Assembly (NCBI GenBank): GCA_001897305.1
Contig: MKSO01000001.1
Coordinates: 720,001-752,000 of the forward strand
Source of the DNA: Candidatus Saccharimonadota bacterium
GTDB taxonomy: Bacteria; Patescibacteriota; Saccharimonadia; Saccharimonadales; Saccharimonadaceae
Direction of reading: 5' to 3'
Length of the DNA: 32,000 nucleotides
Shown: positions 2,137 to 19,393 of the stretch, one piece after another
Layout of the letters: every line of letters starts with the position of its first letter
Numbering within the stretch: position 1 is the first letter of the stretch
Notes under the pieces: model-generated
What the model saw: the letters and a program-made list of their open reading frames with translations, nothing else
Told to the model about the DNA's origin: nothing
Databases searched by the model: none
Made by a program: the position numbers and the translations under genes

Positions 2137-2141
2137 GCGTG

Positions 2142-3341
2142 TTAATACCAGTGATTTGCCGTCCAGAAGTTATAGGCTTTTTGCCACCCGCCGTATCTAC
2201 CGGTCACATACCCGTTCATCCAGTTGAGTGAGTCGATTGGGTTATAAGGGTTACCAGGAACTTTAGTACAAGGTAGTGCCTGTGCCAGCCCACACGCCCC
2301 CGAGGAAGCATTGACCGCATTAGGATTCCAGCCGCTCTCTCGTGACACTAAATAGTCGGCATAGCCCCAGTCGGCCTCAGCAATATTAGATGCACTTAGC
2401 CAGTCTGTCTTCGTCCCACCACCAGTATATGGAAGGGTATTCGGCTTGCTTCCCACTACCTCGACTTGCACCACTGGCTCCTGCAACGTAACACTCGCTA
2501 TTTCAGTTCTGGCAACTTCAACACCATTCTGAACCTCAACTTCATATGTCACGGTACGTTTACCGTTTTGGCCAGGCGTTTGAACAGCCTTGTATCCTAC
2601 CGTACGATCGGCATCTTTAATTTGCTCAACACCAAAGGCGACATCTTCATCAACAGTAATCGTTTGCTTCCCTTCACGCCAAACACGGAGGCTCATATCG
2701 CTCGTAATTTTCGTATCAAGAGGTGCTGAAACGCGGCCGTCATTTCCTAATACAATACCCTTTTCTTTCAATAAGCCGTCGACCGTCGTAGCCTGAGTTC
2801 GTAGTTGGGTAAGTTTGCCGTATAGGTCGATAGTAAGAGGAATAGCCCGTCGTATAGTAAGCTCAAGACCCGCACCATCACTTACAAGGTCGGTCGAACG
2901 GCTCAGCGTTGTTTTATCTTCTGGGTATAGTGTAATGCCGGCATCTTTGACAATTTTCTCCGCCGATTGATACGGACTTACTACTTTTTGGCGGGTCGCC
3001 CCGTCCACAATAGTAACCGGACGAGCCCGATAAATATTTACCTGGTAATCTGGCGCGACAAGCTTTTCGTCAAGTCCAGGTTCAACGGCATCTTTGGTAT
3101 CGAGGGCTATACCTTGGTGGGTAAGAGCGGCTTTTAGGGTATCTTCGGTAGTAACAAAGGTTGTTTCAGTGCCACGATCGTGAACTGTAATAAGCCTGCC
3201 GCCTTCAACCTGTGCTTCGGCTGTGCGCGGGAAAAATGCCAACAATGACAAAACAACACCCAGCACAATGGCTAAGGCGGTTGCACTAATAATCGTGGTG
3301 GATTTCCGTACTCGCAGTTTCATAATTGATAGAGGATACAC
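2142..3341 (-). CDS. RpfB-like cell-wall protein: DUF348 repeats, G5 domain and a C-terminal lysozyme-like transglycosylase domain
   Basis: 399-aa ORF that is a paralogue of 106-1332 over its DUF348/G5 part. The C-terminus (YLVSRESGWNPNAVNASSGACGLAQ) carries the catalytic-Glu ESG motif of IsaA/SceD/Rpf-type transglycosylases. The ORF opens with GTG at 3341; ATG at 3323 (MKLRVRK...) is an alternative start. Confidence 0.8.
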   Translation of the reverse strand: MYPLSIMKLRVRKSTTIISATALAIVLGVVLSLLAFFPRTAEAQVEGGRLITVHDRGTETTFVTTEDTLKAALTHQGIALDTKDAVEPGLDEKLVAPDYQVNIYRARPVTIVDGATRQKVVSPYQSAEKIVKDAGITLYPEDKTTLSRSTDLVSDGAGLELTIRRAIPLTIDLYGKLTQLRTQATTVDGLLKEKGIVLGNDGRVSAPLDTKITSDMSLRVWREGKQTITVDEDVAFGVEQIKDADRTVGYKAVQTPGQNGKRTVTYEVEVQNGVEVARTEIASVTLQEPVVQVEVVGSKPNTLPYTGGGTKTDWLSASNIAEADWGYADYLVSRESGWNPNAVNASSGACGLAQALPCTKVPGNPYNPIDSLNWMNGYVTGRYGGWQKAYNFWTANHWY

Positions 3342-3378
3342 CTCTCACTTCGTATCGTAATAATTATAGCACATCATG

Positions 3379-5490
3379 CTAAAGCTTTTGAAGATGTGCG
3401 TACTCGGCGTTTAGTTTTTTAGTTTGGCCATTAATAAAAGCGACCGTCACCGCCAAACCGTCTATCTCTATAATTTCACCGTCTCCAAAAGCTGCCGATC
3501 GAACTTTATCACCTTCCTCAAAACCAACTTCATCCGTATAGAATGGTTCGTCTTGGCGCGCACCCATAATGGCAGGTTCGGCATTGACCATTGCTACCTG
3601 ATTGCCCATATCAGAGACAAACCGAGAGACAGGATTATAACCTCGAGTACCAAATTGTAGACGACTATACGCATAGCTTAGGTGGAGCTCCTCGCGTGCC
3701 CGCGTCATACCCACATAACACAATCGACGTTCTTCTTCGAGTTCGGCCGGGCCAGCCTCAAACACGCGCGAGTGGGGCAAGATACCTTCTTCCATGCCCA
3801 CCATGAACACAACTGGAAATTCCAAGCCTTTGGCTGCGTGGAGCGTCATAAGTGTTACTTTATTACTACTATCACCCGTGTCGACGCTCGACATCAGGGC
3901 TACTTCTTCAAGAAAGTCTGATAGGCTGGTAAAATTTTGCGCGTCAGACAACAGCGAACCGAGGTTTTCCTCGCGGTCTTCCGCCTGGGGCGTACCATCA
4001 AGTATGTAGTCACGATACCCGACTGCGCGAATAACTTCTTCAATTAGTTCCGCCGGGTGAAGCTCGTCAATACGCTGCTGAAGATAACGGAGCTTCTCAC
4101 CTAATGACTGCAAAGCCTGTTTAGCTTTGCCAGTTACTATTTTTTCAGATTCAATCCGACACAGCGCATCAATTATGGTATCGCCGCTATCTGGTTGCCA
4201 GTTCAAAAAGCGCTCCAAGCTTGTCGCACCTACGCCTCGGGTGGGCGTATTAGCGATGCGGCTAAAACTCATTCGATCATTTGGCTGGTACAGCAGTTTT
4301 AAATACGCAATGACGTCTTTGATTTCTTTTCGATCATAAAAACGCACCCCACCAATAATTTGATATGGCACGCGTAGCTGCAAGAAAGCACGCTCGAGCG
4401 TGTAGCTTAAAGCATTGGTTCGATACAGTACCGCAAACTCATCGTAGCGACGCGCACCAATTGCTACCTGAGACGAAATGCGATCCGCTACTTGTCGAGC
4501 TTCTTCGGCTTCATCGTAGGCGCCATGGGCTTGTACAGGCGCTCCTGCCCCGCTCGCCGTCCAAAGTTTCTTATCTGTTCGCTGGGTATTCTTGGTAATA
4601 ACAGCGTTAGCCGCATCTAAAATATTACCCGTGCTCCGGTAGTTTTGCTCTAATTTAACCACTTTCGCACCCGGAAAATCCCGCTCAAAGTTTAATATAT
4701 TGGTAAAATCGGCCCCCCGCCAGCTATAAATTGATTGCCAATCGTCACCGACTACACATATGTTTTGTTGGTCGTTTACGAGCAGCTTTACAAGTTGATA
4801 CTGGGCAGCATTAGTGTCCTGGTACTCGTCTATTAAAATGTATTCGAATTGCGCCCGCCACTTAGCCCGAAGTTCTGAGTTGTCACGAAGCAGGCGAACG
4901 GCTTCGATGAGAAGATCGTCAAAATCAAGCGCCTGTGCAGTGCGACGACGCTTTTCGTATTCGCGGTATACCTTCGCAACGTTTTTCTGAAAAGGATAGT
5001 GTGCCGAGGCCTCATATTCATTTGGGTCTTGAAGGGCATTTTTAGCCGATGAAATTGCACCGCTCACCGCCGACGGTTTCATGTCCTTATCAGAGATAGA
5101 AAGGTTTTTCATTACCTGCTTAACCAAGCCTTGTCGATCGTCCTCATCGTAAATAACGAAGTTTCGCGGAATCGACAACGCCGCGCCGTCCATTCGAAGT
5201 AAACGGACGCAAATACTGTGGAATGTGCCCATCCATGGCATAAATGACCGATCATTTGGTTGTTGTAGTAGGCCTGAAAGCCGTTCACGCATTTCCTTGG
5301 CCGCTTTATTCGTAAAAGTAACCGCTAAAATATGGCTTGGCCACACTTTTTGCTCGGCAACCAGTAGCGCAATACGATGCGTTAATGTCTTCGTCTTACC
5401 ACTTCCGGCGCCAGCTAAGATTAACAACGGACCGCTTGTTGTGAGAGCCGCTTCTGTTTGCGCCTCATTTAAACCCTCAAGTAAATTCAT
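3379..5490 (-). CDS. pcrA: ATP-dependent DNA helicase PcrA/UvrD family
   Basis: 703 aa with a Walker A motif (AGAGSGKTKTLTHR), the DEYQDTN motif, YRS and VTLMTLHAAKGLEFP, all characteristic SF1 UvrD/PcrA motifs. Confidence 0.93.
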   Translation of the reverse strand: MNLLEGLNEAQTEAALTTSGPLLILAGAGSGKTKTLTHRIALLVAEQKVWPSHILAVTFTNKAAKEMRERLSGLLQQPNDRSFMPWMGTFHSICVRLLRMDGAALSIPRNFVIYDEDDRQGLVKQVMKNLSISDKDMKPSAVSGAISSAKNALQDPNEYEASAHYPFQKNVAKVYREYEKRRRTAQALDFDDLLIEAVRLLRDNSELRAKWRAQFEYILIDEYQDTNAAQYQLVKLLVNDQQNICVVGDDWQSIYSWRGADFTNILNFERDFPGAKVVKLEQNYRSTGNILDAANAVITKNTQRTDKKLWTASGAGAPVQAHGAYDEAEEARQVADRISSQVAIGARRYDEFAVLYRTNALSYTLERAFLQLRVPYQIIGGVRFYDRKEIKDVIAYLKLLYQPNDRMSFSRIANTPTRGVGATSLERFLNWQPDSGDTIIDALCRIESEKIVTGKAKQALQSLGEKLRYLQQRIDELHPAELIEEVIRAVGYRDYILDGTPQAEDREENLGSLLSDAQNFTSLSDFLEEVALMSSVDTGDSSNKVTLMTLHAAKGLEFPVVFMVGMEEGILPHSRVFEAGPAELEEERRLCYVGMTRAREELHLSYAYSRLQFGTRGYNPVSRFVSDMGNQVAMVNAEPAIMGARQDEPFYTDEVGFEEGDKVRSAAFGDGEIIEIDGLAVTVAFINGQTKKLNAEYAHLQKL

Positions 5491-8581: not shown

Positions 8582-10003
8582 CTATTCTAGCACGCGAACC
8601 TTGATTGTGTCAGTAGTTCCGATAACACCTGGTTGTTGACCACTGACGATAATAACTTTTGCCCGGCCTTCACCAAAGAAGCCTTCGGCTTTTAGTTCTT
8701 TGAACAAATCAAAACCAGCCTCTGGGGCGTCTGGACGAACGTAATTGCGGTTTGCATAGCTTAGTGCTAATTGCTGAGCAGCTTGTTGTTCACTAGTTAC
8801 GCTGATAATTGGCAAGTTAGGACGGTGCGCAGCAATAGTTGCGGCAGTTGCACCAGATTTTGTCTCGGCAATAATAGCATCAACCTTAAGTTGTTCCGCA
8901 AGAGATACGGCAGCCGTACCAATAGCGTCAAGCTGTACATTTTTAGCAATCACATCGTGCATTGGCGCAACAGCAGCGTTGTCTTGGGTATAAAGAATAA
9001 CCCGCTTCATAGCAGCAACTGTTTCGAGTGGGTAGTTACCGTTGGCAGTTTCATCAGATAACATAACCGTGTCGGCACCTTGGATGACCGCGTTGGCAAC
9101 GTCGCTTACCTCAGCACGGGTTGGCTCTGGGTTGTCAACCATGCTCGCCATCATTTGGGTTGCAACGATGCTTAGTTTTGCGTGCTTACGGCATAGTGCT
9201 AATAATTTACGCTGTACGATTGGCACTACTTCAGCACCAGCTTCGACGGCCAAGTCACCACGGGCAACCATAATACCGTCGGTAGCCTTGACGATTTCTT
9301 CCATGACATCATCTTTGATGGCTGCTTTGGTCTCAATCTTGGCAATAATTTGCGCGTTTGACCCACCAGCTACGAGAATCTGGCGCAGGTTGTTAATGTC
9401 ATCAGGACTTTGTACGAAGCTGAGCGCAACATAGTCGATATCTTGCGTTAAACCATATTCGATGTCTTGAAGGTCTTTAGGGGTAAGAATATCACCACCA
9501 AAGTCCGTATCAGGCAGGTTGATACCTTTTTTACTCATAAGAATGCCGTCGTTTTCGATACGCACCTTAATGGCAGTTTCAGAAGTAATTTCGATAACAG
9601 TCGTGCGTACTTTACCGTCAAAAATGTAGATAGGCTCGCCTACTTTTACTTTTTCAGCCAAGTTGTATTGGATAGGTAGGTTTGCCGAACCATCGTGTTC
9701 TTCAACAGCGTGGTCAAGAATAATTTCATCACCCTTACGCACTTCAAAACGATTGTCTTTTAGGGCGCCGAGGCGAATTTTAGGACCCTGAAGGTCTTGA
9801 AGAATAGCAACCGGCTTGCCAATACGACGGCTCGCGTCACGGATAGCAGGAATTTGAATGTCACGCTCTTCGTGTGAACCGTGACTAAAGTTAAGACGAA
9901 TACCGTTAACACCGGTAGCAATAAGTTGCTCGATCATTTCTGGGGTTGAGGTTGCTGGCCCGAGAGTTGCAAGAATTTTAGTTCGTTTGAAAATGATTGC
10001 CAT
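8582..10003 (-). CDS. pyk: pyruvate kinase
   Basis: 473 aa with TKILATLGPA, NGIRLNFSHG, the MVARGDL motif and TQMMASM. Confidence 0.95.
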   Translation of the reverse strand: MAIIFKRTKILATLGPATSTPEMIEQLIATGVNGIRLNFSHGSHEERDIQIPAIRDASRRIGKPVAILQDLQGPKIRLGALKDNRFEVRKGDEIILDHAVEEHDGSANLPIQYNLAEKVKVGEPIYIFDGKVRTTVIEITSETAIKVRIENDGILMSKKGINLPDTDFGGDILTPKDLQDIEYGLTQDIDYVALSFVQSPDDINNLRQILVAGGSNAQIIAKIETKAAIKDDVMEEIVKATDGIMVARGDLAVEAGAEVVPIVQRKLLALCRKHAKLSIVATQMMASMVDNPEPTRAEVSDVANAVIQGADTVMLSDETANGNYPLETVAAMKRVILYTQDNAAVAPMHDVIAKNVQLDAIGTAAVSLAEQLKVDAIIAETKSGATAATIAAHRPNLPIISVTSEQQAAQQLALSYANRNYVRPDAPEAGFDLFKELKAEGFFGEGRAKVIIVSGQQPGVIGTTDTIKVRVLE

Positions 10004-10056
10004 AATAAGAAAAGCCCTTTTTGAATGTTATATTAGTCACCTTTGGTCGGTTCTAT

Positions 10057-10131
10057 TGGTGATCTCACGGAGAATCGAACTCCGATTGCCAGGATGAAAA
10101 CCTGGTGTCCTAACCGTTAGACGATGAGACC
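10057..10131 (-). tRNA. tRNA-Glu (anticodon UUC), CCA encoded
   Basis: The reverse complement reads GGTCTCA TC GTCT AACGGTTA GGAC A CCAGG TTTTCAT CCTGG CAAT CGGAG TTCGATT CTCCG TGAGATC A CCA. It folds by hand into a cloverleaf with anticodon TTC. Confidence 0.9.
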
Positions 10132-10143
10132 ATCAAAAGAACT

Positions 10144-10222
10144 GATCAAAAGCGCATGCACGTTTTTACCCGAAGTATTGTAACAAAAAATACCCCGTAT
10201 TACTAGAGGTATAGGACATTTT
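10144..10222 (+). repeat. possible degenerate third copy of the island-flanking repeat family
   Basis: It has the same block order as the copy at 11421-11535: GATCA (10144-10148), GCATG (10154-10158), TTGTAA (10178-10183), ATACC (10190-10194), TAGAGGTATAGG (10204-10215) and TTTT (10219-10222). The alignment was made by eye and includes indels. Confidence 0.35.
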
Positions 10223-10238
10223 ATGCTATTTTGCTCTT

Positions 10239-10278
10239 CCGTCGGAGCCTCGGCAGTTTCCTGCCGAGACCCCGACGG
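10239..10278 (-). terminator. GC-rich nested hairpin 8 nt after the stop of the minus-strand island operon (no U-tract)
   Basis: CCGTCGG agc CTCGGCAG tttc CTGCCGAG acc CCGACGG. The inner stem is a perfect 8 bp and the outer stem 7 bp. It coincides with the left composition boundary. Confidence 0.5.
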
Positions 10279-10285
10279 CGAGAGC

Positions 10286-10729
10286 CTACAGACGGCGCTG
10301 AGCTCGATAGCGCCGCGCACCCCCTGCCTTGGTGACGTACACACAGACATGATTGCGATCACCCGGACGCTGCATCTCGAGCGCTTGCGCAAGCCACGAC
10401 AAGGGCTTGAAGGTAAGCCCGAGCCGATAGGCGGCGAACGCAGCCAGCTGGAGGCCAGCGTCAGAGTCTCGATCCAAGCGCCTGAAGGCTTCCTCGATGA
10501 TCTCGACTTTACGAGCCACCTCCTGCTTCTCCTCGAGGTCCGACAGCTTGTCCCCCAGGCGAACCTCACGAACAAGTGGAGGCAACTCCCCTGCCACCTC
10601 CATCAGAACTTGCATAACCTCCTCGGATACGACGACGTTACAGCGCAGCTCGTCCGAAGTAGCTTCGGTGGGCATCTCGATCTGGTATTCGATCGTCTCA
10701 GCCCCCTGCGAAGGCAGCATGAGGCTCAT
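10286..10729 (-). CDS. hypothetical protein (147 aa), translationally coupled to the upstream gene
   Basis: The start MSLMLPSQGAETIEYQ... overlaps the upstream stop as ATGA (plus strand tcat at 10726-10729). Third codon positions are mostly G/C on this strand, and the composition is acidic and helical. The longer 192-aa ORF (to 10864) overlaps the upstream gene and is unlikely. No family recognised. Confidence 0.55.
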   Translation of the reverse strand: MSLMLPSQGAETIEYQIEMPTEATSDELRCNVVVSEEVMQVLMEVAGELPPLVREVRLGDKLSDLEEKQEVARKVEIIEEAFRRLDRDSDAGLQLAAFAAYRLGLTFKPLSWLAQALEMQRPGDRNHVCVYVTKAGGARRYRAQRRL

Positions 10730-11184
10730 GCCATCACCTCCATTCGGCGAAGCGTTCGAACTGTGCCCGTAATCGGTGCGTCTCGAGAGACGAGGTCTCG
10801 GAGATACTGCTCGCCCGCAGGCGTCACCTGAAACGACAGCCCTCCACCAGAACTGGCGGAGCACTGCACGCTCTTCACGAACTTGTTCGCGAGCATGTGA
10901 TCAACAACCCTGAAGGCAGCCGACCTCCTCCTGCGCACATTGCGCAAGCGATTCTTGTGGATGACCTTGTCGAGCACCCACCGCCTGAGCATCTTGATCG
11001 ATGGAAGCCGCAGCGGCTTCTCTCGATCGAGAAGCAAAGCAAGCGCTTGATCATGAATGGCTTTCGTCACCAGATCCAACTCCTTCACGGAATTGGATCG
11101 TGCGGTGGCTGCAGCATTCTGATTCCCCATTGGTACCATACTTCCTGTAGGTTCTCGTACACTCCTGAAGGAGCTGCGTCTCAT
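10726..11184 (-). CDS. hypothetical small basic protein with a winged-helix-like C-terminal half
   Basis: Maximal ORF of 152 aa. An internal ATG at 11130 (MGNQNAA...) lies 10 nt after AGGAAG and may be the true start. The segment VVDHMLANKFVKSVQ...LSFQVTPAGEQYLRDL resembles the recognition helix plus wing of MarR-type wHTH proteins. This is a weak, motif-level call. Confidence 0.55.
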   Translation of the reverse strand: MRRSSFRSVREPTGSMVPMGNQNAAATARSNSVKELDLVTKAIHDQALALLLDREKPLRLPSIKMLRRWVLDKVIHKNRLRNVRRRRSAAFRVVDHMLANKFVKSVQCSASSGGGLSFQVTPAGEQYLRDLVSRDAPITGTVRTLRRMEVMA

Positions 11185-11207
11185 GGGACGAAATTAAGTA
11201 CTCGTTG

Positions 11208-11236
11208 GTTATAGCATTATTGACAATTTAATTCAA
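11208..11236 (-). promoter_or_regulatory. candidate sigma70-type promoter for the minus-strand island operon
   Basis: On the minus strand it reads TTGAAT (plus 11231-11236), a 17-nt spacer, then TATAAC (plus 11208-11213). It lies about 20 nt upstream of the first ATG at 11184. Confidence 0.35.
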
Positions 11237-11239
11237 TAA
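11217..11239. promoter_or_regulatory. near-palindrome overlapping the divergent -35 elements (candidate operator)
   Basis: TTATTGA(C)AATT T AATTCAATAA has arms complementary except for one extra base. It overlaps TTGACA (11220-11225, plus strand) and the minus-strand -35. Confidence 0.3.
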
Positions 11240-11272
11240 TTATATTGTATTATTAACTAGATAAGCTCACGT

Positions 11273-11288
11273 ACGCTATATATAGCGT
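11273..11288. promoter_or_regulatory. perfect 16-bp palindrome in the AT-rich hub (candidate operator)
   Basis: ACGCTATATATAGCGT is identical to its own reverse complement. Confidence 0.3.
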
Positions 11289-11356
11289 CATTCATAAGTA
11301 TTTTAGGCAAAGTGACCATAAAGCTTGTGCTTTTGTTGTATATATTGTATAGAATA

Positions 11357-11385
11357 TTGACATTTTAAGCATTTTGTGATAAATT
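11357..11385 (+). promoter_or_regulatory. candidate strong promoter with an extended -10, driving the leader and the membrane-protein/lipoprotein operon
   Basis: TTGACA (11357-11362), a 17-nt spacer ending in TGa, then TAAATT (11380-11385). This matches the TGn extended -10 arrangement. Confidence 0.45.
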
Positions 11386-11391
11386 AAGAAC

Positions 11392-11656
11392 ATCATTCAC
11401 GGGTGCGGTGTGAGAGACCACGCCAGGGTGAGGAGGTCGTTAACAAGTCAGATCATTACAGTGCATGTCTGGATGCGCTTTATTTGCTTTTTGTAAATAC
11501 CGCGAAATCCGCGCACTGTAGAAGCTATAGATTTTCCTTACTCCTTTCACGGGACGGAAGGGCAGCCCACTATTATTGATAGTAAGCTGTCGTTCCGTCC
11601 CGACCGTCGGGACCTCGCCAAACCGGCGATTGTCCCTTCGGGGAAAGGAGCAAGAC
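11392..11656 (+). promoter_or_regulatory. long structured 5' leader with mutually exclusive hairpins
   Basis: Hairpin A pairs CGGGACGGAA (11550-11559) with TTCCGTCCCG (11593-11602). Hairpin B is GTCCCGA ccg TCGGGAC (11597-11613) and reuses the 3' arm of A. Further hairpins are TCGCC/GGCGA (11615-11629) and TCCC ttcg GGGA (11633-11644), the latter abutting the SD AAGGAG (11645-11650). Confidence 0.4.
11421..11535 (+). repeat. left copy of the diverged inverted repeat bracketing the plus-strand island operon
   Basis: Blocks are GCCAGGGT, GTTAAC (11439-11444), TCAGATCATTACA (11448-11460), TGCATGTC (11462-11469), TGGATGCGCT, AAATACC and GAAGCTATAGATTTT (11521-11535). They recur in the same order in the reverse complement of 13627-13785. 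Confidence 0.7.
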
Positions 11657-12070
11657 ATGTCCACCAGCGACACCACCATCAGCGCCGAAGAGCGAGAAAT
11701 CGCGAATCTGCTAAAGGCAGAACCGAGCAATGAAGTCCACACGGAGCCCTCTCACAAGGAGGCCCGCAAGGAGATGTGGCGGAACTACTTCCGCACGTTG
11801 TTCATCGTCTGGTTCGCCCAGTTCGTCACCGCCGTCATCTTCTTCATGATCGCTTACGCGAACGGATGGACGGACGGCTTCAACTACGGCTACAAGGATC
11901 CCAACGGACACATCGAGCCCTTCAACGGGGCAAAGATGTGGGAGGCGATCGGCATCATGACCCAGTGGGGAGTGGTAATCATCTTCGTACTGGCGTTCGG
12001 AGCGCTCGTCGCGCTCGCCATCCGGTGGGTCCCCAAGACGCACAAGCCCAAGACCGACAAGAAGCACTGA
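11657..12070 (+). CDS. hypothetical 2-TM membrane protein (137 aa) with a basic C-terminal tail
   Basis: ATG at 11657 lies 6 nt after AAGGAG. The tracked 164-aa ORF opens with TTG inside the leader and is unlikely. TM helices are FRTLFIVWFAQFVTAVIFFMIAY and WGVVIIFVLAFGALVALAI, and the tail is KTHKPKTDKKH. Third codon positions are G/C-rich. Confidence 0.7.
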   Translation: MSTSDTTISAEEREIANLLKAEPSNEVHTEPSHKEARKEMWRNYFRTLFIVWFAQFVTAVIFFMIAYANGWTDGFNYGYKDPNGHIEPFNGAKMWEAIGIMTQWGVVIIFVLAFGALVALAIRWVPKTHKPKTDKKH

Positions 12071-12089
12071 CACCGAGAGGAGGTGCGTC

Positions 12090-13577
12090 ATGCGACGCAT
12101 CAAAACCCTCAGCCTCGCCATCGTTCTTCTGATGTTCGGTGCTGTGTCCCTCGCGGGATGCAGTGCCTTCATCGGAGGGAGTGCGCAGGCTGACGACAGT
12201 GACACCGTCACTGTCACGCCCATCAACCTGTCCGACCAGACCGTTATCGACGGCCTGTGCGGCTCCGACCCGAACTCCTCGAACGAGGAGCTCCGCAACA
12301 AGAGCGCCACGCGCTACCTGGACGCGTTCCAGGCGGTCGTGGAAGATCTCAAGCGGTACGAAGACGGCGGCGCCCGACACGACAAGGTCGCGGAAATCCA
12401 GGCGTCCTGGGGGGTCAACCCCGAGGATCAGCCTGCTGTTGACACCGCCGTCGCCGCCCTCAAGGCGCGCGCCGGTGAGGTCTGTGGCAACACGCAGGAC
12501 GGCGCTACGACGCAGCTCTGGAACCAGGATGGTACCCGTACCTTCCTGGCGTCCGTCAACTCCACGGAGGTGACGGGTGTCGACTCCACCGCTGACGCCA
12601 GTGCACCGCCCGTGCTGGTTCTGGACGCGTCCAACAAGGGCGTCGAGGTGTTCAAGTCGTTCACCCAACTGCTGAACACGGCCGAACAGGCCGGGCACGC
12701 AGGACAGGTGTACATCGACTACATCAACGCCCACAAGGCCGACTTCGGTCCGAACTGGACGAACGGTTGGGAAGACGTCAAGAAGTTCGCCAAGACCGAG
12801 CAGGAGCAGAAGGTCGACACGCGTGCCGTGCAGGTATTGAACTGCCCGGCCGATGTGACCGAAGCAACCGCTCGTTCGATGGCGGCAGAGATCAAGGGAA
12901 TCGGCGAGTACGATGCCCAGCACATGGCTTTCCAGCGTGTGTCGGGCAACTTCGTCAACTCCCGCGATGTCGGCGTCTACGGCCAGCCGAACATCCAGCC
13001 GTTCACGCAGTCCAACTGCCAGATCCGTGTCAGCCTCGTCCCGATCGTCTACGACGCCTCGGGCAAGGCCATCGGGCTCGACAGCTCGGGCGTCGGCATC
13101 TTCGTCGACTGCGGCAACCCTCACTGGTGGATCCCTCCGACAGTGATCGTCTGGCAGTGCGCCACTTCCGAGTGCGCACCGCCGGCCGAGCAGGTCTGCC
13201 CGTGGAACCCCGCCCTGCCGGTGGGTTCACCGAACTGCAAGCCGCCGACACCGTCGGACGCCAAGGACAACAGGCTCACCCCGGACAACCCGGGATGGAC
13301 CCCCCGCGGCACCGACAACGGCGTGACCGACGGCCGTGAGTCGGTGCGTCAGCAAGAGTCGGGTGATACCCGAGGCAATGGTGGTCAACACCAGGTCGGT
13401 GGCAACACCGGTTCCGGTGACAACACCAGCAGTACGGGCACTGACGTCACCGTCGGAGGGTCCACCCCCGGCGGAGACAGCCCCACGGGCACCGTACAGG
13501 ACCCGGGCCTGGTGAAGGACGACAAGGGAGGAACGGAAGGCGCAACCTGCGTCCCCACTCCCCTCGTCAGCTGCTGA
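12090..13577 (+). CDS. secreted lipoprotein of unknown function (495 aa), Cys-rich with a Gly/Thr/Ser-rich C-terminal region
   Basis: The SD GGAGG is 6 nt upstream. The signal peptide carries a lipobox (MRRIKTLSLAIVLLMFGAVSLAG|C). Third-position G/C is strong in this frame only. There are many Cys residues (for example WQCATSECAPPAEQVCPWNP...NCKPP) and a low-complexity tail (GNTGSGDNTSSTGT...). No known domain recognised. Confidence 0.8.
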   Translation: MRRIKTLSLAIVLLMFGAVSLAGCSAFIGGSAQADDSDTVTVTPINLSDQTVIDGLCGSDPNSSNEELRNKSATRYLDAFQAVVEDLKRYEDGGARHDKVAEIQASWGVNPEDQPAVDTAVAALKARAGEVCGNTQDGATTQLWNQDGTRTFLASVNSTEVTGVDSTADASAPPVLVLDASNKGVEVFKSFTQLLNTAEQAGHAGQVYIDYINAHKADFGPNWTNGWEDVKKFAKTEQEQKVDTRAVQVLNCPADVTEATARSMAAEIKGIGEYDAQHMAFQRVSGNFVNSRDVGVYGQPNIQPFTQSNCQIRVSLVPIVYDASGKAIGLDSSGVGIFVDCGNPHWWIPPTVIVWQCATSECAPPAEQVCPWNPALPVGSPNCKPPTPSDAKDNRLTPDNPGWTPRGTDNGVTDGRESVRQQESGDTRGNGGQHQVGGNTGSGDNTSSTGTDVTVGGSTPGGDSPTGTVQDPGLVKDDKGGTEGATCVPTPLVSC

Positions 13578-13584
13578 ACCTCAA

Positions 13585-13615
13585 GTGGGCGGGTCGCTTC
13601 GCGCGACCCGCCCAC
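13585..13615 (+). terminator. 13-bp GC-rich hairpin after the lipoprotein gene (no U-tract)
   Basis: GTGGGCGGGTCGC ttcgc GCGACCCGCCCAC begins 8 nt after the stop. It marks the right composition boundary. Confidence 0.6.
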
Positions 13616-13626
13616 TCCGGCACAAC

Positions 13627-13785
13627 AAAATCTATAGCTTCATTACCTATGGAGCAGTATTCCGTATTTGAGTCCGCCTCACGGCAGATTCGTATGTTGA
13701 GTAGCGCTCCATAGGCTACTCCAAGTTTTATTGAGATGCACATAATTGTAATGATCTGATTTGATAATCGTTAACAACCCGGCAA
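13627..13785 (-). repeat. right (inverted) copy of the repeat bracketing the island operon
   Basis: The reverse complement contains GCCGGGTT, GTTAAC (13770-13775), TCAGATCATTACA (13747-13759), TGCATCTC (13733-13740), TGGAGCGCT, AAATACGG and GAAGCTATAGATTTT (13627-13641). It is about 45 nt longer than the left copy in the central part. Confidence 0.7.
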
Positions 13786-13850
13786 CAATGTTTTATATTT
13801 TATTAATTTTGATTTTTTCTGCGAGATAAATCAAGAAAAGGAGCAAGTAT

Positions 13851-15503
13851 ATGAGTAAACTTATGTCTCTCATTCGTCGTTCTCCAAAGCGCGTTTTCGC
13901 TCTTGTAGCAGTAGCTGCAGCTGCACTTATCGTGCCAGTTGCCGCTCTTGCATGGGGACCAGACCGACCAACATTTACTATGGAAAATCCTGCACCATAT
14001 GTAACATTTAACTCAATAACTAATAACGGTAAGGTTGGTGATGAGCGTAACTTCCTGCGCATTCGCGAATCAGGAACCGGTGAATACATTAACCAAGTTA
14101 ATTTCGAACCAGGCAAGGTGTACGACGTTTCTGTGTACTACCACAATAATGCTGCAACTCGCTTGAACGCAAGCGGCGAAGGTATTGCAAAAGATGCAAC
14201 TCTTAAGATTGAAATGCCTTACGTCATTAAAGCAGGTGTTAATGCCGCTTTAACAAGTACTATTTCTGCTAGCAATGCTAAGCCAACCTCAGTATGGGAT
14301 GAAGCATACGGTAAGAACAATACTAACGCTGAAATTGCTTTGCGATATGTCGCTGGCTCAGCTAAGTTTGTAAGTAACGGCGCTATTAACGGCCAAACAC
14401 TTCCAGACAGCCTATTCACTACTGGCGCAAAACTAGGTTTTGATAGCCAAAATGGTACCGTACCTGGTTGTAACGAATATTCAGGTTTTGTAAACTTCAA
14501 AATCCGTATCGACCAGCCTAACTACGAGGTTAAAAAGGTAGTGAGTACCGATGACGGTAAAACTTGGGTTGATAGTGTAAAAGCACAACCAGGTAGCACG
14601 GTAACATACGGTATTTCTTACCAAAACACCGGTACTAACCAGCAGGATGACGTTGTTGTACGTGACATGTTACCAGCTGGCGTAGCATATGTACCTGACT
14701 CAACTTACTTAATGAACTCTGTAACAAAAGGTAAATTCGAAAAAGCTTCCGATGGCATTACTACCGTAGGATACAATGCTGGTTCGTACCAATCAAAGGG
14801 TAATGTGTTCTTTAAGTTCAATGCTAAACTACCAAGCAAAGACCAACTAAAGTGTGGTACCAACACACTTGTAAACACTGCTCGCGTAAGCGTTAATGGT
14901 GGCTACAAAGAAGACACCGCTACTGTAACTATCGATAACGAATGTAAGCCAGTCGTAAAATACACCTGTGATGCCCTCGGCGTAACCGTTGTAGACCGTA
15001 CTCACTTTACATTTAACACTAAGTACACCGTACAGAACGCAACCTTTAAAAGTGTTACTTACGTTATTAAGAACGCAAACGGCAAGGTTGTTGACACCAA
15101 AACTTCTAACGGTACGTCTTTGAACTACACTCAAACAACTGTTGGCAAGTACACCGTACAAGCAACAGTTACCGTTACTGTTGATGGTACAACTAAGACA
15201 GTTACCAGCGACGCATGTAAGGCTTCATTCGAAGTACCTGCACAACCTGGAAACATTACTGTTTGTGAACTCTCAACTAAGAAAATCGTAACCATTAAGG
15301 AAAACCAGTTCGATGCTGCGAAGTACTCGAAGGACCTTAGCAAGTGTGCGGAGACACCAGTTCCACCGGTAACTCCACCTACCACACCACCTGAGCTTCC
15401 TCACACCGGTATGACCGAAAACATTGTTGCCATTACTGGTCTTGGTGCCCTGATTGCAAGCATCGCTTACTACGTTGCAAGCCGTCGCGCACTAAACCAA
15501 TAG
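13851..15503 (+). CDS. LPXTG-anchored surface protein with repeated beta-rich (DUF11/Ig-like) modules
   Basis: 550 aa with the SD AAGGAG upstream and a signal peptide (...VAALA|WG). The C-terminal sorting signal is LPHTG, a hydrophobic helix (IVAITGLGALIASIAYYVA) and SRR. There are repeated T/V/K-rich beta-strand segments with paired Cys. Confidence 0.85.
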   Translation: MSKLMSLIRRSPKRVFALVAVAAAALIVPVAALAWGPDRPTFTMENPAPYVTFNSITNNGKVGDERNFLRIRESGTGEYINQVNFEPGKVYDVSVYYHNNAATRLNASGEGIAKDATLKIEMPYVIKAGVNAALTSTISASNAKPTSVWDEAYGKNNTNAEIALRYVAGSAKFVSNGAINGQTLPDSLFTTGAKLGFDSQNGTVPGCNEYSGFVNFKIRIDQPNYEVKKVVSTDDGKTWVDSVKAQPGSTVTYGISYQNTGTNQQDDVVVRDMLPAGVAYVPDSTYLMNSVTKGKFEKASDGITTVGYNAGSYQSKGNVFFKFNAKLPSKDQLKCGTNTLVNTARVSVNGGYKEDTATVTIDNECKPVVKYTCDALGVTVVDRTHFTFNTKYTVQNATFKSVTYVIKNANGKVVDTKTSNGTSLNYTQTTVGKYTVQATVTVTVDGTTKTVTSDACKASFEVPAQPGNITVCELSTKKIVTIKENQFDAAKYSKDLSKCAETPVPPVTPPTTPPELPHTGMTENIVAITGLGALIASIAYYVASRRALNQ

Positions 15504-15596: not shown

Positions 15597-15818
15597 ATGG
15601 CAAATAAAGTAAAGAAGAAACGAACCAAACAGTACCGCGGCGCCGATGCCGCCCTTACAAAACCTGTCGTAACGCGTATTAGCGCCGCTAATCGCTCAAA
15701 ACTGGGGCAATGGTGGTTCGAACGCAAGCGAGTCCTGAAGCCGGTTCTTATCACATCCGGTATTGTCGTGTTGGTAGCGTGGCTCGTATACGAACTGATT
15801 CGTATTACCACCCAATAA
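15597..15818 (+). CDS. small basic protein with one C-terminal TM helix (73 aa)
   Basis: MANKVKKKRTKQYRG... followed by the TM segment PVLITSGIVVLVAWLVYELI. It looks more protein-like than the antisense 95-aa ORF. There is no clear SD. Confidence 0.5.
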   Translation: MANKVKKKRTKQYRGADAALTKPVVTRISAANRSKLGQWWFERKRVLKPVLITSGIVVLVAWLVYELIRITTQ

Positions 15819-18019: not shown

Positions 18020-19393
18020 CTACTTAGTCGAAAAGCATAGTGTATACACACCATCTTGTGTAACGCGAAGACGTGATTTTTCAGCAGGCACACCAGCTTT
18101 GGCATGCAGGCGCGTCACATCACGAATGTTACGCATCCTGACTTTAATAGGCCAACCCATAAGCCCATGAAGGAAGTCGGCCTGGGGTCGATTTTTGTTC
18201 ATATTTCCTGTTGTCATCAAGCCCCCGTCGGCAAGCGCACTCCAGGCCTGGCGCGTAAGGTCTTCATACATAGCATCGGGGAAATATTCACGCAAGCCAG
18301 AATCTTCACAGACATCAAGCTCTCGGCCTTGAAGAACTTCTTGCAAATCCATCATGCGTGTTTTATTGCCATCTCGTACAAAGAGCTGATTACAATGAAT
18401 CTCGATTGAATCTTCGAGACCCAGTTGGCGAGCAAGCTCCGCGGCGGCAGCTAAAGCAATTGGATCCTGGTCAACAAGAATCATTTTGGCTGTTTTACCC
18501 TTAGTCTTTAAATCATGCATCACCTCAAGCATCGGGAGGGCCGTGCCGCATCCTACACTCATCATCAAGAACGAATCTTCACCCGAAGCATCAACATGAC
18601 GATTAATCTCTTTATGCACCTCTTCCTTGCGACTTCGTATACCAAGCGAATCAGTACAATACTGGACAATATCTTTAAAGCCAGGTTGAATATGCGCCTC
18701 ATTAAATAGCTCAAGTTTATCAAGCTCAGCTGCGGCATATTTTTGAGCACTCACTGCACTTTTATTACCCCTAAAGTCCTCCGCTACATCATACGCAGCT
18801 TCCCATAAATATTTCCCGGTCAAATTCGGCGAAACGCCCGTCTCAGGAAATTCATAATCGCCCGTAATAGCTCCTCCAAAACGGCCCGACATAGTTTCAT
18901 ATAAACCATGTGACTCTCCGTATACTCGCAGATCATGAGCATCAATAATCGTACCTAATGCAAGTGCTTTTCCACCCTGTTCATGCCAAGGCATTGCCTG
19001 AACATCAGCTCGGTTAAACAAATGACGAGCCCTCGAATCTTCACGCACCATTCGTATGCGTCGTCGGACTTTCTTAGCCATAGCAGATTGGAGCGGTAAG
19101 TGTTCGGCGGCCAATGCAAGGGCACTACTCCCAAATGCAGCTCTGCGTGAATCCTCTTCGAATAAATAGCTACTCAACTCTAATTGGTCACGGACCCTAA
19201 AGATACCCTCCGGCGTATCATAGGCCTTGTCATAGGTATCGCCGATAGTAATGTCATATCCGGCCGAATCAACCTCGGCAATCTCATTAAGAAGCGTCTT
19301 TGGAAACAAAAATGCAAGTGTACTTTCTTTTTCTGGCTGTTCGGGGAATTGGTCGAATGAAGGCTCGGCTTTATCAATTGGGGAATAGGTCAT
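18020..19393 (-). CDS. class I SAM-dependent methyltransferase with an uncharacterised N-terminal domain of about 270 aa
   Basis: 457 aa. The C-terminal half has SAM motif I (FLMMSVGCGTALPML) and an acidic post-I residue (MILVDQDP). The N-terminal half matches nothing I recognise. Confidence 0.7.
   Translation of the reverse strand: MTYSPIDKAEPSFDQFPEQPEKESTLAFLFPKTLLNEIAEVDSAGYDITIGDTYDKAYDTPEGIFRVRDQLELSSYLFEEDSRRAAFGSSALALAAEHLPLQSAMAKKVRRRIRMVREDSRARHLFNRADVQAMPWHEQGGKALALGTIIDAHDLRVYGESHGLYETMSGRFGGAITGDYEFPETGVSPNLTGKYLWEAAYDVAEDFRGNKSAVSAQKYAAAELDKLELFNEAHIQPGFKDIVQYCTDSLGIRSRKEEVHKEINRHVDASGEDSFLMMSVGCGTALPMLEVMHDLKTKGKTAKMILVDQDPIALAAAAELARQLGLEDSIEIHCNQLFVRDGNKTRMMDLQEVLQGRELDVCEDSGLREYFPDAMYEDLTRQAWSALADGGLMTTGNMNKNRPQADFLHGLMGWPIKVRMRNIRDVTRLHAKAGVPAEKSRLRVTQDGVYTLCFSTK

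Follow-up and report, generated by a model that had tools for sequence, protein, structure and literature searches.

What kind of genetic element is the GC-rich gene pair that lies directly upstream of a cell-wall-anchored surface protein in a Saccharibacterium whose closest genomes bear the label Ca. Microsaccharimonas? Within the window, that is, the whole stretch of 32,000 nucleotides analysed and numbered here, the pair encodes a 137-aa membrane protein and a 495-aa lipoprotein. A first-pass annotation had described a candidate two-gene cell-surface module, set in a foreign island next to an LPXTG surface protein, in an organism of the type that lives attached to actinobacterial hosts; the module and its LPXTG link were borne out, and the foreign-island premise was not. 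The locus is ordered as a promoter and structured leader RNA, a membrane-protein gene, a gene for a lipid- or TM-anchored secreted protein, a trailer, a gene encoding a CLIPPER protein, and a gene for a small TM protein.

The left edge of the variable, GC-rich stretch is formed by a tRNA-Glu(UUC) gene (10057–10131, minus strand; ARAGORN, and Rfam tRNA at 60.7 bits), right past which GC rises from ~0.41 to ~0.6. The GC content of the variable stretch is 57–68% against 46%, with GC3 values of 0.86 for the 137-aa gene and 0.82 for the 495-aa gene, compared with 0.37–0.53 in all 26 window genes outside the GC-rich stretch. Two overlapping GC-rich genes (10286–11130, minus strand; GC3 0.63–0.68) encode proteins of 147 aa (10286–10729) and 134 aa (10726–11130) and point divergently away from the cassette promoter. 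These gene calls were taken from the near-identical contig L001; the proteins had no family match in Pfam, NCBIfam, PHROGs or PADLOC, and homologues were found in close relatives only (L001-3, L038, L017 and L120).

The first cassette gene (11657–12070, plus strand; ORF call) encodes a two-TM protein with an N-terminal tail of ~43 residues, hydrophobic segments at residues 44–69 and 94–127, and a Lys-rich C-terminus (AIRWVPKTHKPKTDKKH). Coordinates and topology agree exactly with the first-pass description, as does the 19-nt gap between the end of this gene at 12070 and the start of the lipoprotein gene at 12090; both genes have good Shine–Dalgarno sequences (AAGGAG, GGAGG). The 137-aa protein matched nothing in Pfam, NCBIfam, PHROGs or PADLOC and has only three relatives among 5.8 billion proteins.

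The second gene (12090–13577, plus strand; ORF call) encodes a protein that begins with MRRIK and carries a hydrophobic stretch at residues 3–31 and the lipobox L-A-G-C at residues 21–24. This charged N-terminus, hydrophobic stretch and lipobox mark it as a predicted bacterial lipoprotein (Lgt/Lsp substrate), and most of its relatives likewise carry lipoboxes. The lipobox is followed by a Cys-stapled helical region, an alpha/beta core (residues ~130–345), a Cys/Pro knot and a conserved tail. Five of the 12 cysteines are clustered within residues 341–383, Pro makes up 22% of residues 346–400, and G, S, T, D and N together account for 61% of residues 401–495; the cysteine cluster near a Pro-rich segment and the Gly/Ser/Thr-rich tail originally noted are all present in the sequence. 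The tail is Gly/Asp/Thr-rich and closes with C-x7-C. The protein varies in its centre and is conserved over its C-terminal ~100 aa.

No match above threshold was found for the 495-aa protein in Pfam, NCBIfam, PHROGs or PADLOC, and a PDB sequence profile search gave E values of at least 0.48 throughout. A profile word-index protein search added one protein only; the family was reached by searching exhaustively with HMMER and comprises 124 representatives at 50% identity, all metagenomic. Across 61 diverse members of the core domain, an Arg, a Cys and an Asn (Arg313, Cys341 and Asn343) are invariant and an Asp, a Trp and a Tyr near-invariant, with the conserved Arg, Cys, Asn and Asp falling in VRVSL.P and FVDC.N.WW. 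An AF2 model of the full-length lipoprotein built from 8 sequences was poor (pLDDT 46) and was set aside for a core-domain model built from 61 sequences (pLDDT 83.6, pTM 0.81). Foldseek searches with the latter returned best E values of 0.39 (PDB) and 0.24 (BFVD), with TM-scores mostly ≤0.2. The lipoprotein belongs to a new family of proteins, and the fold predicted with confidence for its core has no match in the PDB or BFVD. The initial impression that neither protein contains a recognisable catalytic or binding domain holds across these profile and fold searches, and no solute-binding or other characterised family matches the lipoprotein.

Downstream of the cassette, the gene at 13851–15503 (plus strand; Pfam PF01345, TIGR01451/TIGR01167) encodes a 550-aa CLIPPER(DUF11) protein with an LPHTG sortase anchor, confirming the LPXTG surface protein reported directly downstream. 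It is preceded by a promoter-like site, TTAACA-17-TATATT (13771–13799, plus strand; promoter scan), and the TTAACAA box adjoining the trailer site is conserved across loci. The CLIPPER gene has a GC3 of 0.37 and a dN/dS of 0.07–0.10 and follows the cassette in all loci whose sequence extends far enough; its product is the apparent constant partner of the cassette. Conserved 3' of it is a gene (15597–15818, plus strand) for a 73-aa basic protein with a C-terminal TM helix, which is 45–80% identical to versions in L011, L015, L016, L018, L019, L021 and L025; genes of 72–84 aa occupy the matching position in L005, L011, L147 and L148. As far as the accessible part of the source goes, fibrillar adhesins carry CLIPPER as a stalk domain stabilised by isopeptide bonds, and accessory genes like this pair are not described for CLIPPER proteins (PMC12617251). 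The constant neighbour shares the CLIPPER domain, signal peptide and LPXTG anchor with these adhesins, whereas the two proteins of the pair both lack a CLIPPER domain and an LPXTG sorting signal, the latter being present only in the downstream CLIPPER protein. No sortase domain was found among the window ORFs scanned or the Pfam labels of L001, and a sortase-dependent pilus or surface-protein operon was rejected on these grounds.

The composition of the pair invites the reading that it is a recently acquired foreign island, derived from a high-GC actinobacterial host, a phage or an ICE. The GC-rich stretch combines atypical composition with a neighbouring tRNA gene, as genomic islands do: its third codon positions (GC3 0.82–0.86) are Actinomycetota-like, tRNA-Glu stands at its left edge, and the upstream minus-strand genes are likewise GC-rich and lineage-restricted. 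We nevertheless consider a recent foreign origin highly improbable. A membrane-protein and secreted-protein pair lies directly upstream of the CLIPPER/LPXTG gene in every relative examined (~40 Saccharibacteria loci), and this synteny persists where the neighbourhood is rearranged and where adhesin identity falls as low as 39%. The foreign-island premise fails on this point, with the pair or a variant of it at the same CLIPPER-upstream position in all related loci examined; each carries a GC-rich cassette here, with no empty site among them, and the genes are intact rather than decaying in these relatives. Raised cassette GC3 was also found in L001, L005, L010, L013, L015, L017, L018, L022-24, L026 and L027, and 19 further loci have a mean GC3 of 0.61 in the cassette vs 0.38, the cassette being higher in each.

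Searches for a donor point the same way. The window contains no integrase, transposase or att-type direct repeat, direct repeats across 9900–14000 being at chance level only. Using tblastn, no match was obtained in 50,697 phage and 72,556 plasmid records, and a C-tail motif scan confirmed nothing in 185,579 species genomes or IMG/VR. The tail motif is too variable for exact patterns, since such scans confirmed nothing though tblastn found relatives in L015, L017, L018, L021 and L022. All lipoprotein family members checked come from metagenomes and from Saccharibacteria-type contexts. No homologue was found in the phages, plasmids or named genomes searched, and host mimicry is without support because no actinobacterial relatives were found. 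Recent transfer into the locus is largely refuted.

The cassette is set apart from its surroundings by its rate and mode of change. Its dN/dS is about 0.5–0.6 (0.62 for the 137-aa gene vs L005; 0.50–0.62 for the 495-aa gene), compared with 0.06–0.10 for neighbouring genes; this value could reflect relaxed constraint, not diversifying selection. Cassette alleles are mosaic, with break-points, and whole domains are replaced between close strains; in the comparison with L005, both genes are variable blocks. Divergence is shared between the two genes, the type of membrane partner following the type of secreted protein. At this same position, some cassettes encode secreted proteins without the core domain (P0005–P0008 types), and in P0079, P0064 and P0085 the core domain is fused to TM or coiled-coil parts. 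The fusion of a membrane part to the core domain in relatives indicates that membrane protein and lipoprotein work together. As a separate observation, one core match in L045 sits upstream of its leader. The coiled-coil partner in L015 gave PHROG/PADLOC matches to hemolysin, LmuB and LeoA, which were discarded as weak matches to a low-complexity coiled coil. Mosaic alleles together with a dN/dS of 0.5–0.6 fit a specificity or recognition role.

Two other functional readings bear on the same data. The near-invariant core residues could mark an enzyme instead of a binding module. On this view the lipoprotein core, anchored or partnered by the membrane protein, may act enzymatically or as a chaperone in maturing or attaching the CLIPPER protein or the nearby wall, for which thiol/disulfide chemistry, isopeptide formation and wall tailoring are candidate activities. 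Strict linkage to the CLIPPER gene, the conserved residues themselves, the compact and confidently folded domain of the model, and a predicted membrane-proximal position behind the lipid anchor all favour such a role. It is unlikely, however, in that a dN/dS 5–10 times that of the neighbours and the replacement of whole domains are unusual for an enzyme with a conserved substrate, some secreted proteins at the same position dispense with the core domain, and the PDB profile and Foldseek searches revealed no likeness to any known enzyme fold.

The second reading is a polymorphic effector/immunity or exclusion pair in kin discrimination, in which the lipoprotein would be the effector or ligand and the membrane protein would protect or recognise self. 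In polymorphic toxins, a conserved N-terminal region for delivery is joined to a variable C-terminal toxin, and an immunity gene follows. Here, by contrast, variation is central, conservation lies in the C-tail and the small gene precedes the large one, a layout at odds with that of toxin and immunity genes; the repeated fusion of a membrane part to the domain is hard to square with a toxin and its immunity protein, and no toxin-like family or fold was matched. The joint divergence of the two genes, with partner type tracking secreted-protein type, the variability of both genes vs L005, the mosaic alleles and the high dN/dS speak for this reading, which we judge improbable. The concept has a parallel in Thermococcales, where, in the accessible part of the source, hypervariable modules beside Ig-domain proteins were proposed to serve self/non-self recognition or conflict (PMC8416519). 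Both systems combine a relatively conserved Ig-type surface protein with adjacent, fast-changing genes for membrane or secreted proteins; they differ in the domain of life and the protein families involved, the gene for the Ig-type protein here follows the variable genes, and an RNA bracket is not described in that part of the source.

Such a bracket surrounds the present cassette. A sigma-70-type promoter (TTGACA, a 17-nt spacer with TG extension, TAAATT; 11357–11385, plus strand; scan 10/12 with TG), conserved across loci (alignments A5 and A6), precedes a leader that opens with a 5' hairpin of three stacked helices and a GUGAGA apical loop (11395–11438, plus strand; covariance model R1, 97.9 bits). 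Among 120 distinct sequences of this hairpin, 88% of cells are paired vs 60.6% in shuffles, the covariation score is 0.498 vs 0.162 shuffled (none of 500 reached 0.498; slid controls ≤0.10), and both sides change in all 12 of 12 pairs. This support is comparative, not thermodynamic: folded singly, the window leader does not beat shuffles (z = -0.8). The variable hairpin is misaligned in MAFFT alignments, from which RNAalifold recovered at most part of the structure, and it was resolved by a hand-specified structure and covariance-model realignment. The hairpin is followed by an invariant 27-nt core (TTAACAAGTCAGATCATTACAGTGCAT; 11440–11466, plus strand) that is present in at least 118 metagenome contigs and has 22 invariant columns in 99 sequences; the leader is 87–92% conserved between genomes with genes 70–77% identical. 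Overlapping the end of the core is a hairpin with a U-rich run (11460–11489, plus strand; a 7-bp stem, then TTATTTGCTT), a counterpart of which was found in most loci; it may act as a terminator-like element or as an alternative structure to long-range pairing. Further hairpins include one in the 5' UTR of the two-TM gene (11550–11602, plus strand; repeat I1), GC-rich with 24-nt arms, 83% complementarity and a 5-nt loop.

On the far side of the cassette, the trailer site (ATGCAC-ATAAT-TGTAATGATCTGATTTGATAA; 13736–13767, plus strand) is the reverse complement of the leader core, with 19 of 21 positions complementary in the window (repeat I3; 11440–11460 with 13747–13767). In ~63 loci the trailer site lies 0.5–2.8 kb 3' of the leader, with 2–4 mismatches vs 5–8 in shuffles. 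Leader–trailer positions 5–21 are paired in 64 loci; position 15 covaries (45 C-G and 18 U-A pairs), with compensatory changes in L017 and L020, and position 8 is G.U in 84%. The duplex energy is -34.6 kcal/mol vs -8.9 kcal/mol shuffled. Local alignment of the two flanks yielded the 21-nt box only, by itself barely above shuffles, and long inverted repeats as transposon-like ends were rejected for this reason; we give weight to the box because it is conserved across loci, not from the single-window alignment. A second box (GAAGCTATAGATTTT; 11521–11535, plus strand) is complementary at 15 of 15 positions to box 2' (AAAATCTATAGCTTC; 13627–13641, plus strand; repeat I5). A second helix at a like relative position beats shuffles in about one third of loci by an exact-complement test; RNAduplex on the long flanks gave z ~0 for further helices.

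Transcription of the trailer would depend on the cassette promoter. A perfect 14-bp GC-rich hairpin (13584–13616, plus strand; repeat I8) stands 3' of the lipoprotein stop codon and is not scored as a terminator by the terminator scan; because it lacks a U-run, read-through past it is predicted to be plausible. Because the -35-like box of the adhesin gene is located 3' of the trailer, the latter is predicted to be transcribed only by cassette read-through. In Rfam 15, only tRNAs reach the gathering score and nothing credible at E ≤10 falls in 11150–11700; a literature search did not turn up the sequence strings. The leader and its matching trailer are previously undescribed RNA elements, absent from Rfam. 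The same units bracket unrelated small genes in low-GC genomes lacking the CLIPPER gene, which shows that the RNA elements are not confined to this pair; tandem arrays of units occur in L059, L099 and L140.

Inverted boxes of 21–27 bp could instead act on DNA, through inversion (phase variation) or cassette exchange, as in invertons, shufflons and Xer-dif systems. The boxes at 11440–11460/13747–13767 and 11521–11535/13627–13641, conserved across loci, resemble the flanking inverted repeats of an invertible segment, inverted copies bracket each cassette and alternate along the tandem arrays (L059, L099), cassettes have clearly been swapped between lineages, and within-genome covariation of copies is also expected from gene conversion between recombination sites. 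Against this, all of the ~40 core, tail and two-TM matches between leader and CLIPPER gene are co-oriented with the leader, the two orientations expected of an invertible segment were not seen in assembled loci, and no recombinase gene was found in the window. The covarying leader hairpin argues for an RNA function, the commonest non-Watson–Crick pair is a plus-strand G.U, and the plus-strand RNA duplex is predicted to be the stronger (-34.6 vs -30.2 kcal/mol). A DNA-level role of the boxes is quite improbable, and the evidence leans towards RNA over DNA function. A likeness of the leader core (27–28 nt) to Xer/dif sites was dismissed as a weak match, GC skew having no switch here.

Read as RNA, the leader and trailer would fit an RNase III-type stem, with at least 20 bp of flanking complement conserved with covariation. 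Long-range processing stems enclose 16S and 23S rRNA, and RNase III sites occur in phage polycistronic mRNAs. Shared with the rRNA stems are complementary flanks of at least 20 bp, 1.4–2.8 kb apart, that enclose an RNA loop, in many loci with an inner helix; here, in contrast, the enclosed RNA is a predicted mRNA for variable surface proteins, and the cassette leader additionally forms a hairpin and a terminator-like hairpin of its own. Integron attC arrays and the pdif modules of Acinetobacter are known gene-cassette arrays with short repeats at their boundaries. With these the present units share short, oppositely oriented sites around single variable genes and tandem arrays (L059, L099, L140), but no integrase or recombinase lies nearby, each unit has its own promoter and structured leader, and orientation is uniform. 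In polysaccharide loci, a JUMPstart/ops leader precedes the genes, a position comparable to that of the cassette leader; the latter is a structured RNA with a complementary trailer, however, and not an ops/RfaH site. Flexible surface islands that are exchanged through their conserved flanks, such as O-antigen and capsule loci and the cell-wall 'metagenomic island' of Haloquadratum walsbyi (PMC4535781), likewise present a fixed-position hypervariable envelope locus with conserved flanks, atypical composition and mosaic alleles in a naturally transformable organism. Unlike these, the cassette comprises two protein genes rather than a glycan pathway, and its composition is shifted upward, to an extreme at third codon positions.

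Taken with about even confidence, and judged from sequence comparisons, our preferred reading is that the pair, a diversifying envelope specificity module working with the CLIPPER protein, forms the variable cassette within a cell-surface locus conserved in Saccharibacteria. The membrane protein and lipoprotein would form one envelope complex, as a single fused polypeptide in several relatives, with the lipoprotein anchored in the membrane and extending its Pro-rich linker and a small Cys-loop tail through the wall. Together with the CLIPPER protein, the complex may act as a diversifying specificity determinant in cell–cell contact, either in epibiont–host recognition or attachment or else in surface variation for phage escape. 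Homologous recombination in the conserved flanks would be the route by which new alleles spread; natural competence is a trait of Saccharibacteria, whose epibiotic growth requires several adhesins (PMC10633639). The leader would pair with the trailer on the plus-strand RNA: either this pairing would enclose the cassette mRNA in a long-range stem that serves its processing or stabilisation, in the manner of rRNA operons, or the leader may act as a short RNA. Tentatively, as a wider possibility that is probably too strong, we suggest that an RNA-defined cassette system of Saccharibacteria, with a conserved promoter and a structured leader the 27-nt core of which pairs with a distal trailer, frames interchangeable envelope-protein genes, singly beside the CLIPPER adhesin or in tandem arrays of up to nine or more units, and that the cassette in the window is a determinant of host or partner specificity of the epibiont, swapped between lineages by transformation through its flanks, with its extreme synonymous GC as a consequence or requirement of such expression or exchange.

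Genetic work on how such epibionts choose and hold their hosts has so far implicated several adhesins along with type IV pili and a type IV secretion system (PMC10633639, PMC11623550). Independently of protein function, the leader/trailer RNA adds a structured element that is new, abundant and clearly covarying, and the persistent 30–45-point GC3 excess of one gene pair across the radiation bears on recombination, selection and composition in reduced genomes. For the organisms themselves, the locus is a concrete candidate, found across the phylum, for a rapidly evolving module of specificity in ultrasmall epibionts, in which a constant wall-anchored stalk protein would be combined with an exchangeable membrane protein and lipoprotein pair of undescribed fold.

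The cassette comprises a 2-TM protein gene (11657–12070, +; 137 residues) and a lipoprotein gene (12090–13577, +; 495 amino acids), with 19 nt between the stop codon of the first and the start of the second, and strong ribosome-binding sites for both. The 2-TM protein has an acidic, mixed-charge N-terminal tail of ~43 residues, hydrophobic segments at residues 44–69 and 94–127, and a Lys-rich C-terminus. The second protein opens with a classic lipoprotein signal (MRRIK, then a hydrophobic run, then LAGC at residues 21–24) and is, by sequence, a predicted lipoprotein; five of its 12 cysteines fall within residues 341–383, a segment with 22% proline, and its final 95 residues are 61% Gly/Ser/Thr/Asp/Asn, with a C-x7-C at the end. 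The first-pass annotation had described this pair with the same coordinates, topology, lipobox, and Cys/Pro features, all of which were reproduced; it had recognized no catalytic or binding domain, and Pfam, NCBIfam, PHROGs, and PADLOC likewise gave no above-threshold match to either protein. The LPXTG surface protein that it placed downstream is, by Pfam and NCBIfam, an LPHTG-anchored DUF11 protein (13851–15503, +). DUF11 was recently renamed CLIPPER and is described as a CnaA-like, isopeptide-stabilized Ig domain typical of fibrillar-adhesin stalks (PMC12617251). Around the locus lie standard core genes (PGK, TIM, pyruvate kinase, KsgA, MurB, SHMT, and a histidine kinase), and the nearest genomes are Saccharibacteria labeled Ca. 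Microsaccharimonas. Elsewhere in the window, paralogous DUF348 plus G5 domain proteins, an architecture that occurs in Rpf-type wall proteins, lie on either side of the KsgA gene (106–1332 and 2142–3341, both −), and an EPSP-synthase-fold (MurA/AroA-type) enzyme is unusually fused to an N-terminal HTH_3 domain (27259–28791, +).

GC content rises from ~46% to 57–68% across about 10200–13620, with a tRNA-Glu gene at the left edge and an AT-rich gap at 11190–11400. The shift is located at synonymous sites: GC3 is 0.86 in the 2-TM gene and 0.82 in the lipoprotein gene, and 0.37–0.53 in every one of the 26 genes beyond the GC-rich stretch, glycolytic enzymes included. Between tRNA-Glu and the promoter of the leader, an RNA element 5′ of the cassette, lie two overlapping GC-rich minus-strand genes (10286–11130, as ORFs 10286–11184; 147 and 134 amino acids, GC3 0.63–0.68) with no family match and homologues in close relatives only; they make up a further variable block, across the promoter region from the cassette.

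The earlier reading had placed the pair in a foreign island, a premise that the relatives do not bear out. In species-representative genomes retrieved with the CLIPPER protein as query (L015, L017, L018, L020, L022, L023, and L024), the 2 kb 5′ of the CLIPPER gene is GC-rich (59–70%) and the cassette has a GC3 of 0.7–0.9, with CLIPPER identity to that of the window only 39–71%. Two distant family members, in L026 and L027, sit in rearranged neighborhoods, still adjoining a CLIPPER gene, with cassette GC3 of 0.70–0.80 against 0.33–0.55. For lipoprotein relatives close and distant, a small membrane-protein gene lies before and a CLIPPER gene directly after in every case, usually followed by a 72–84-residue gene and a convergent histidine kinase. 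No integrase or att-like direct repeats were found at the window locus, and tblastn of phage and plasmid collections gave no match. Recent horizontal transfer of the cassette is thus, alone among the alternatives, clearly disfavored, and the locus did not classify as an HGT-acquired genomic island. The cassette of the window is therefore a single allele of a locus that is old and shared across the lineage. The loci are mostly metagenomic contigs with taxonomic labels taken from record titles, the species-genome scans used exact patterns, and none of the family members checked came from a named genome. Two Saccharibacteria-type CLIPPER/small protein/kinase loci are filed as a Dongiaceae MAG (L016, DATMTU010000056.1) and a Parcubacteria MAG (L019, JAEWBQ010000022.1), probably through binning or labeling error. 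Directly 3′ of the CLIPPER gene in most loci is a conserved gene, in the window encoding a 73-residue basic protein with a C-terminal TM helix (15597–15818, +), which may be part of the module.

In 19 further loci found via the leader, cassette GC3 exceeds CLIPPER-gene GC3 in every one (means 0.61 vs 0.38), by 0.03–0.36 and least in low-GC lineages; the size of the excess thus varies among loci. It is not tied to expression level, because glycolytic genes have a GC3 of 0.39–0.43, and no donor accounting for it was detectable. Possible sources are a recombination hot spot with biased gene conversion, inheritance from a GC-rich cassette pool common to several lineages, and selection on mRNA.

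Turning to the protein family, a word-index search of 5.8 billion clusters yielded only eight relatives of the lipoprotein and three of the 2-TM protein; searching 1.84 billion representatives exhaustively with a profile recovered 124 family members at E ≤ 1e-3, 58 of them at E ≤ 1e-10. Two modules are separable: a core domain (about residues 130–390 in the window protein) and a C-terminal tail (consensus GW.PRGTDNGVTDG.ES..Q.ESGDTRGN...GGD...GT.GDTCVPDP..G.TC), the latter also found behind unrelated N-terminal domains (P0005–P0008). Across 61 diverse members of the core, Arg, Cys, and Asn are invariant and Asp, Trp, Tyr, Pro, and Gly near-invariant, within the motifs WYIDGVN, VNTR, VRVSL.P, and G.FVDC.N.WW; Cys/Pro-rich spacers and long Pro/Thr linkers follow, and the chains end in a C-x6-9-C loop or a GDPG..F motif. 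The remote-homology search proposed at first pass found no characterized family, as none of the 61 members matched Pfam and a profile search of PDB sequences was empty. The proposed structure prediction gave a poor full-length model from eight sequences (pLDDT 46) and, for residues 125–400 modeled from the 61-sequence alignment, a confident alpha/beta core (pLDDT 83.6, pTM 0.81). Foldseek found no credible match to this core among 350,542 PDB chains (best E 0.39, TM-scores ≤ ~0.2) or BFVD viral models (best E 0.24); the predicted core has no known counterpart among solved or viral folds, a claim short of a new fold. The lipoprotein family is undescribed. An accessory enzyme for CLIPPER is an unlikely role for the pair.

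The upstream partner belongs to several families rather than one: a 2-TM protein in the window, a 4-TM protein in L017/L018, a 108-residue multi-TM protein in L027, and a coiled-coil 2-TM protein in L010, L013, L015, L023, and L024. P0079 joins a coiled-coil-plus-TM part to the core domain, and P0064 and P0085 carry multi-TM N-termini fused to it; all three still lie upstream of CLIPPER. Fusion of this kind is a classical indication that two proteins work as a single unit. Set against these fused forms, an effector/immunity pair is unlikely, and the cassette did not classify as a polymorphic toxin or a pilus operon.

Comparison with L001, an otherwise 98–100% identical strain, revealed ~100% identity from 11290 to about 13220, 45–70% through the lipoprotein tail, the spacer, and the CLIPPER gene over its first two thirds, and 98% after 14906. 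A recombination tract (window 13238–14906, L001 3136–4768) replaces this whole divergent stretch, and the tail of P0002 is in consequence unrelated and Lys/Gln/Ala-rich. Against L005, identity is patchy: 96% in the leader, 55–64% in the 2-TM gene, 94% in the signal peptide, 53–63% in the core, and 89–100% everywhere from 13190 onward. Values of dN/dS are 0.62 for the 2-TM gene, 0.50–0.62 for the lipoprotein, 0.07–0.10 for CLIPPER, and 0.06 for pyruvate kinase, and synonymous divergence is higher in the variable blocks than in their flanks. The cassette alleles are old and recombining, with open and intact reading frames; the decay in relatives that the first-pass annotation had raised as a counter-indication was not seen. 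This is the pattern expected when diversifying or frequency-dependent selection acts on surface or recognition proteins, with relaxed constraint as a possible alternative. Beside the histidine kinase is another variable spot, where a 457-residue protein without a Pfam match (18020–19393, −) is replaced in L005 (6945–8620) by ThiF-like and weakly autoinducer-synthase-like genes.

The non-coding block at 11318–11488 keeps 87–92% identity between genomes that share only 70–77% DNA identity in their protein genes. On the plus strand it contains a strong promoter (TTGACA-17-TAAATT with TG), a ~44-nt hairpin of three helices, an invariant 27-nt core (TTAACAAGTCAGATCATTACAGTGCAT, 11440–11466), and a terminator-like hairpin with a U-rich run (11318–11489 for the structured leader with its promoter). 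At least 118 metagenome contigs carry the core, and the leader covariance model has 123 matches (11395–11469 in the window). In the alignment of these matches, 88% of hairpin cells are paired vs 61% in shuffles, and the covariation score is 0.498 vs 0.162, a value reached by none of 500 shuffles (slid controls ≤ 0.10), with changes on both sides at all 12 pairs; fitting the alignment to the model favors structure, but the margin is still large and compensatory variants are visible by eye. Rfam 15 contains nothing resembling the leader, which could be assigned to no Rfam family, and a search of the literature gave no hit to its sequence strings; it is an undescribed structured RNA element. The 5′ UTR of the 2-TM gene carries, between leader and start codon, a GC-rich hairpin with 24-nt arms (11550–11602), and other loci have GC-rich hairpins of different sequence at the equivalent place.

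Downstream of the cassette, a trailer (13736–13767, +) forms the reverse complement of the leader core. A conserved TTAACA box, which a promoter scan reads as the −35 of the CLIPPER gene, follows it directly. Where the sequence extends far enough, essentially all loci have the trailer, showing 2–4 mismatches in 21 vs 5–8 in shuffles. Leader–trailer positions 5–21 are paired in 64 loci and position 15 covaries (45 C-G, 18 U-A), with compensatory changes in L017 and L020. Among non-Watson–Crick pairs, plus-strand G.U is the most frequent (84% at position 8), and the duplex is predicted at −34.6 kcal/mol in plus-strand RNA, against −30.2 in minus-strand RNA and −8.9 after shuffling. An inverted-repeat search of the window found a perfect 15-nt inner pair (11521–11535 with 13627–13641), and a comparable second helix rises above shuffles in roughly one third of the loci. 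Most loci with enough downstream sequence have leader, GC-rich cassette, and CLIPPER in that order, and all cassette ORFs recognized between a leader and its CLIPPER gene are co-oriented with the leader. Beside this plus-strand pairing and fixed orientation, it is unlikely that the inverted boxes are DNA-level recombination sites, and the locus did not classify as an inverton. In low-GC Saccharibacteria genomes, leader/trailer units surround unrelated small genes, many for membrane proteins, in tandem leader/small ORF/trailer arrays without a CLIPPER gene or GC excess (three units in L059, oriented 1466–4580; at least nine leaders in L099, 2042–9573; several units in L140).

Building on the topology signals, strict CLIPPER linkage, fusions, allele dynamics, and RNA elements, which are directly supported, we propose that expression begins at the conserved promoter and that the leader core pairs with the trailer in the read-through transcript as an rRNA-like processing or stabilizing stem; alternatively, the leader could act as a short RNA. 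The membrane protein and lipoprotein would form one envelope complex, in which the lipoprotein stays at the membrane while a proline-rich linker extends its small disulfide-looped tail outward. Together with the CLIPPER protein on its sortase anchor, this complex may mediate contact of a kind that is pushed to change its specificity: the epibiont could use it to recognize or attach to its host, or the changes could help it escape phages that use the structure. Alleles could be exchanged through the leader flank on the left and the tail/trailer/CLIPPER flank on the right, together with the natural competence of Saccharibacteria (PMC10633639). In concept, the locus is close to flexible cell-surface islands exchanged through conserved flanks, to CLIPPER adhesins, and to Thermococcales hypervariable modules beside Ig-domain proteins (PMC8416519); the leader/trailer RNA is close to long-range processing stems. 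The variable surface cassette is thus a known concept, and what would be new here are its protein family and its RNA element, both undescribed.
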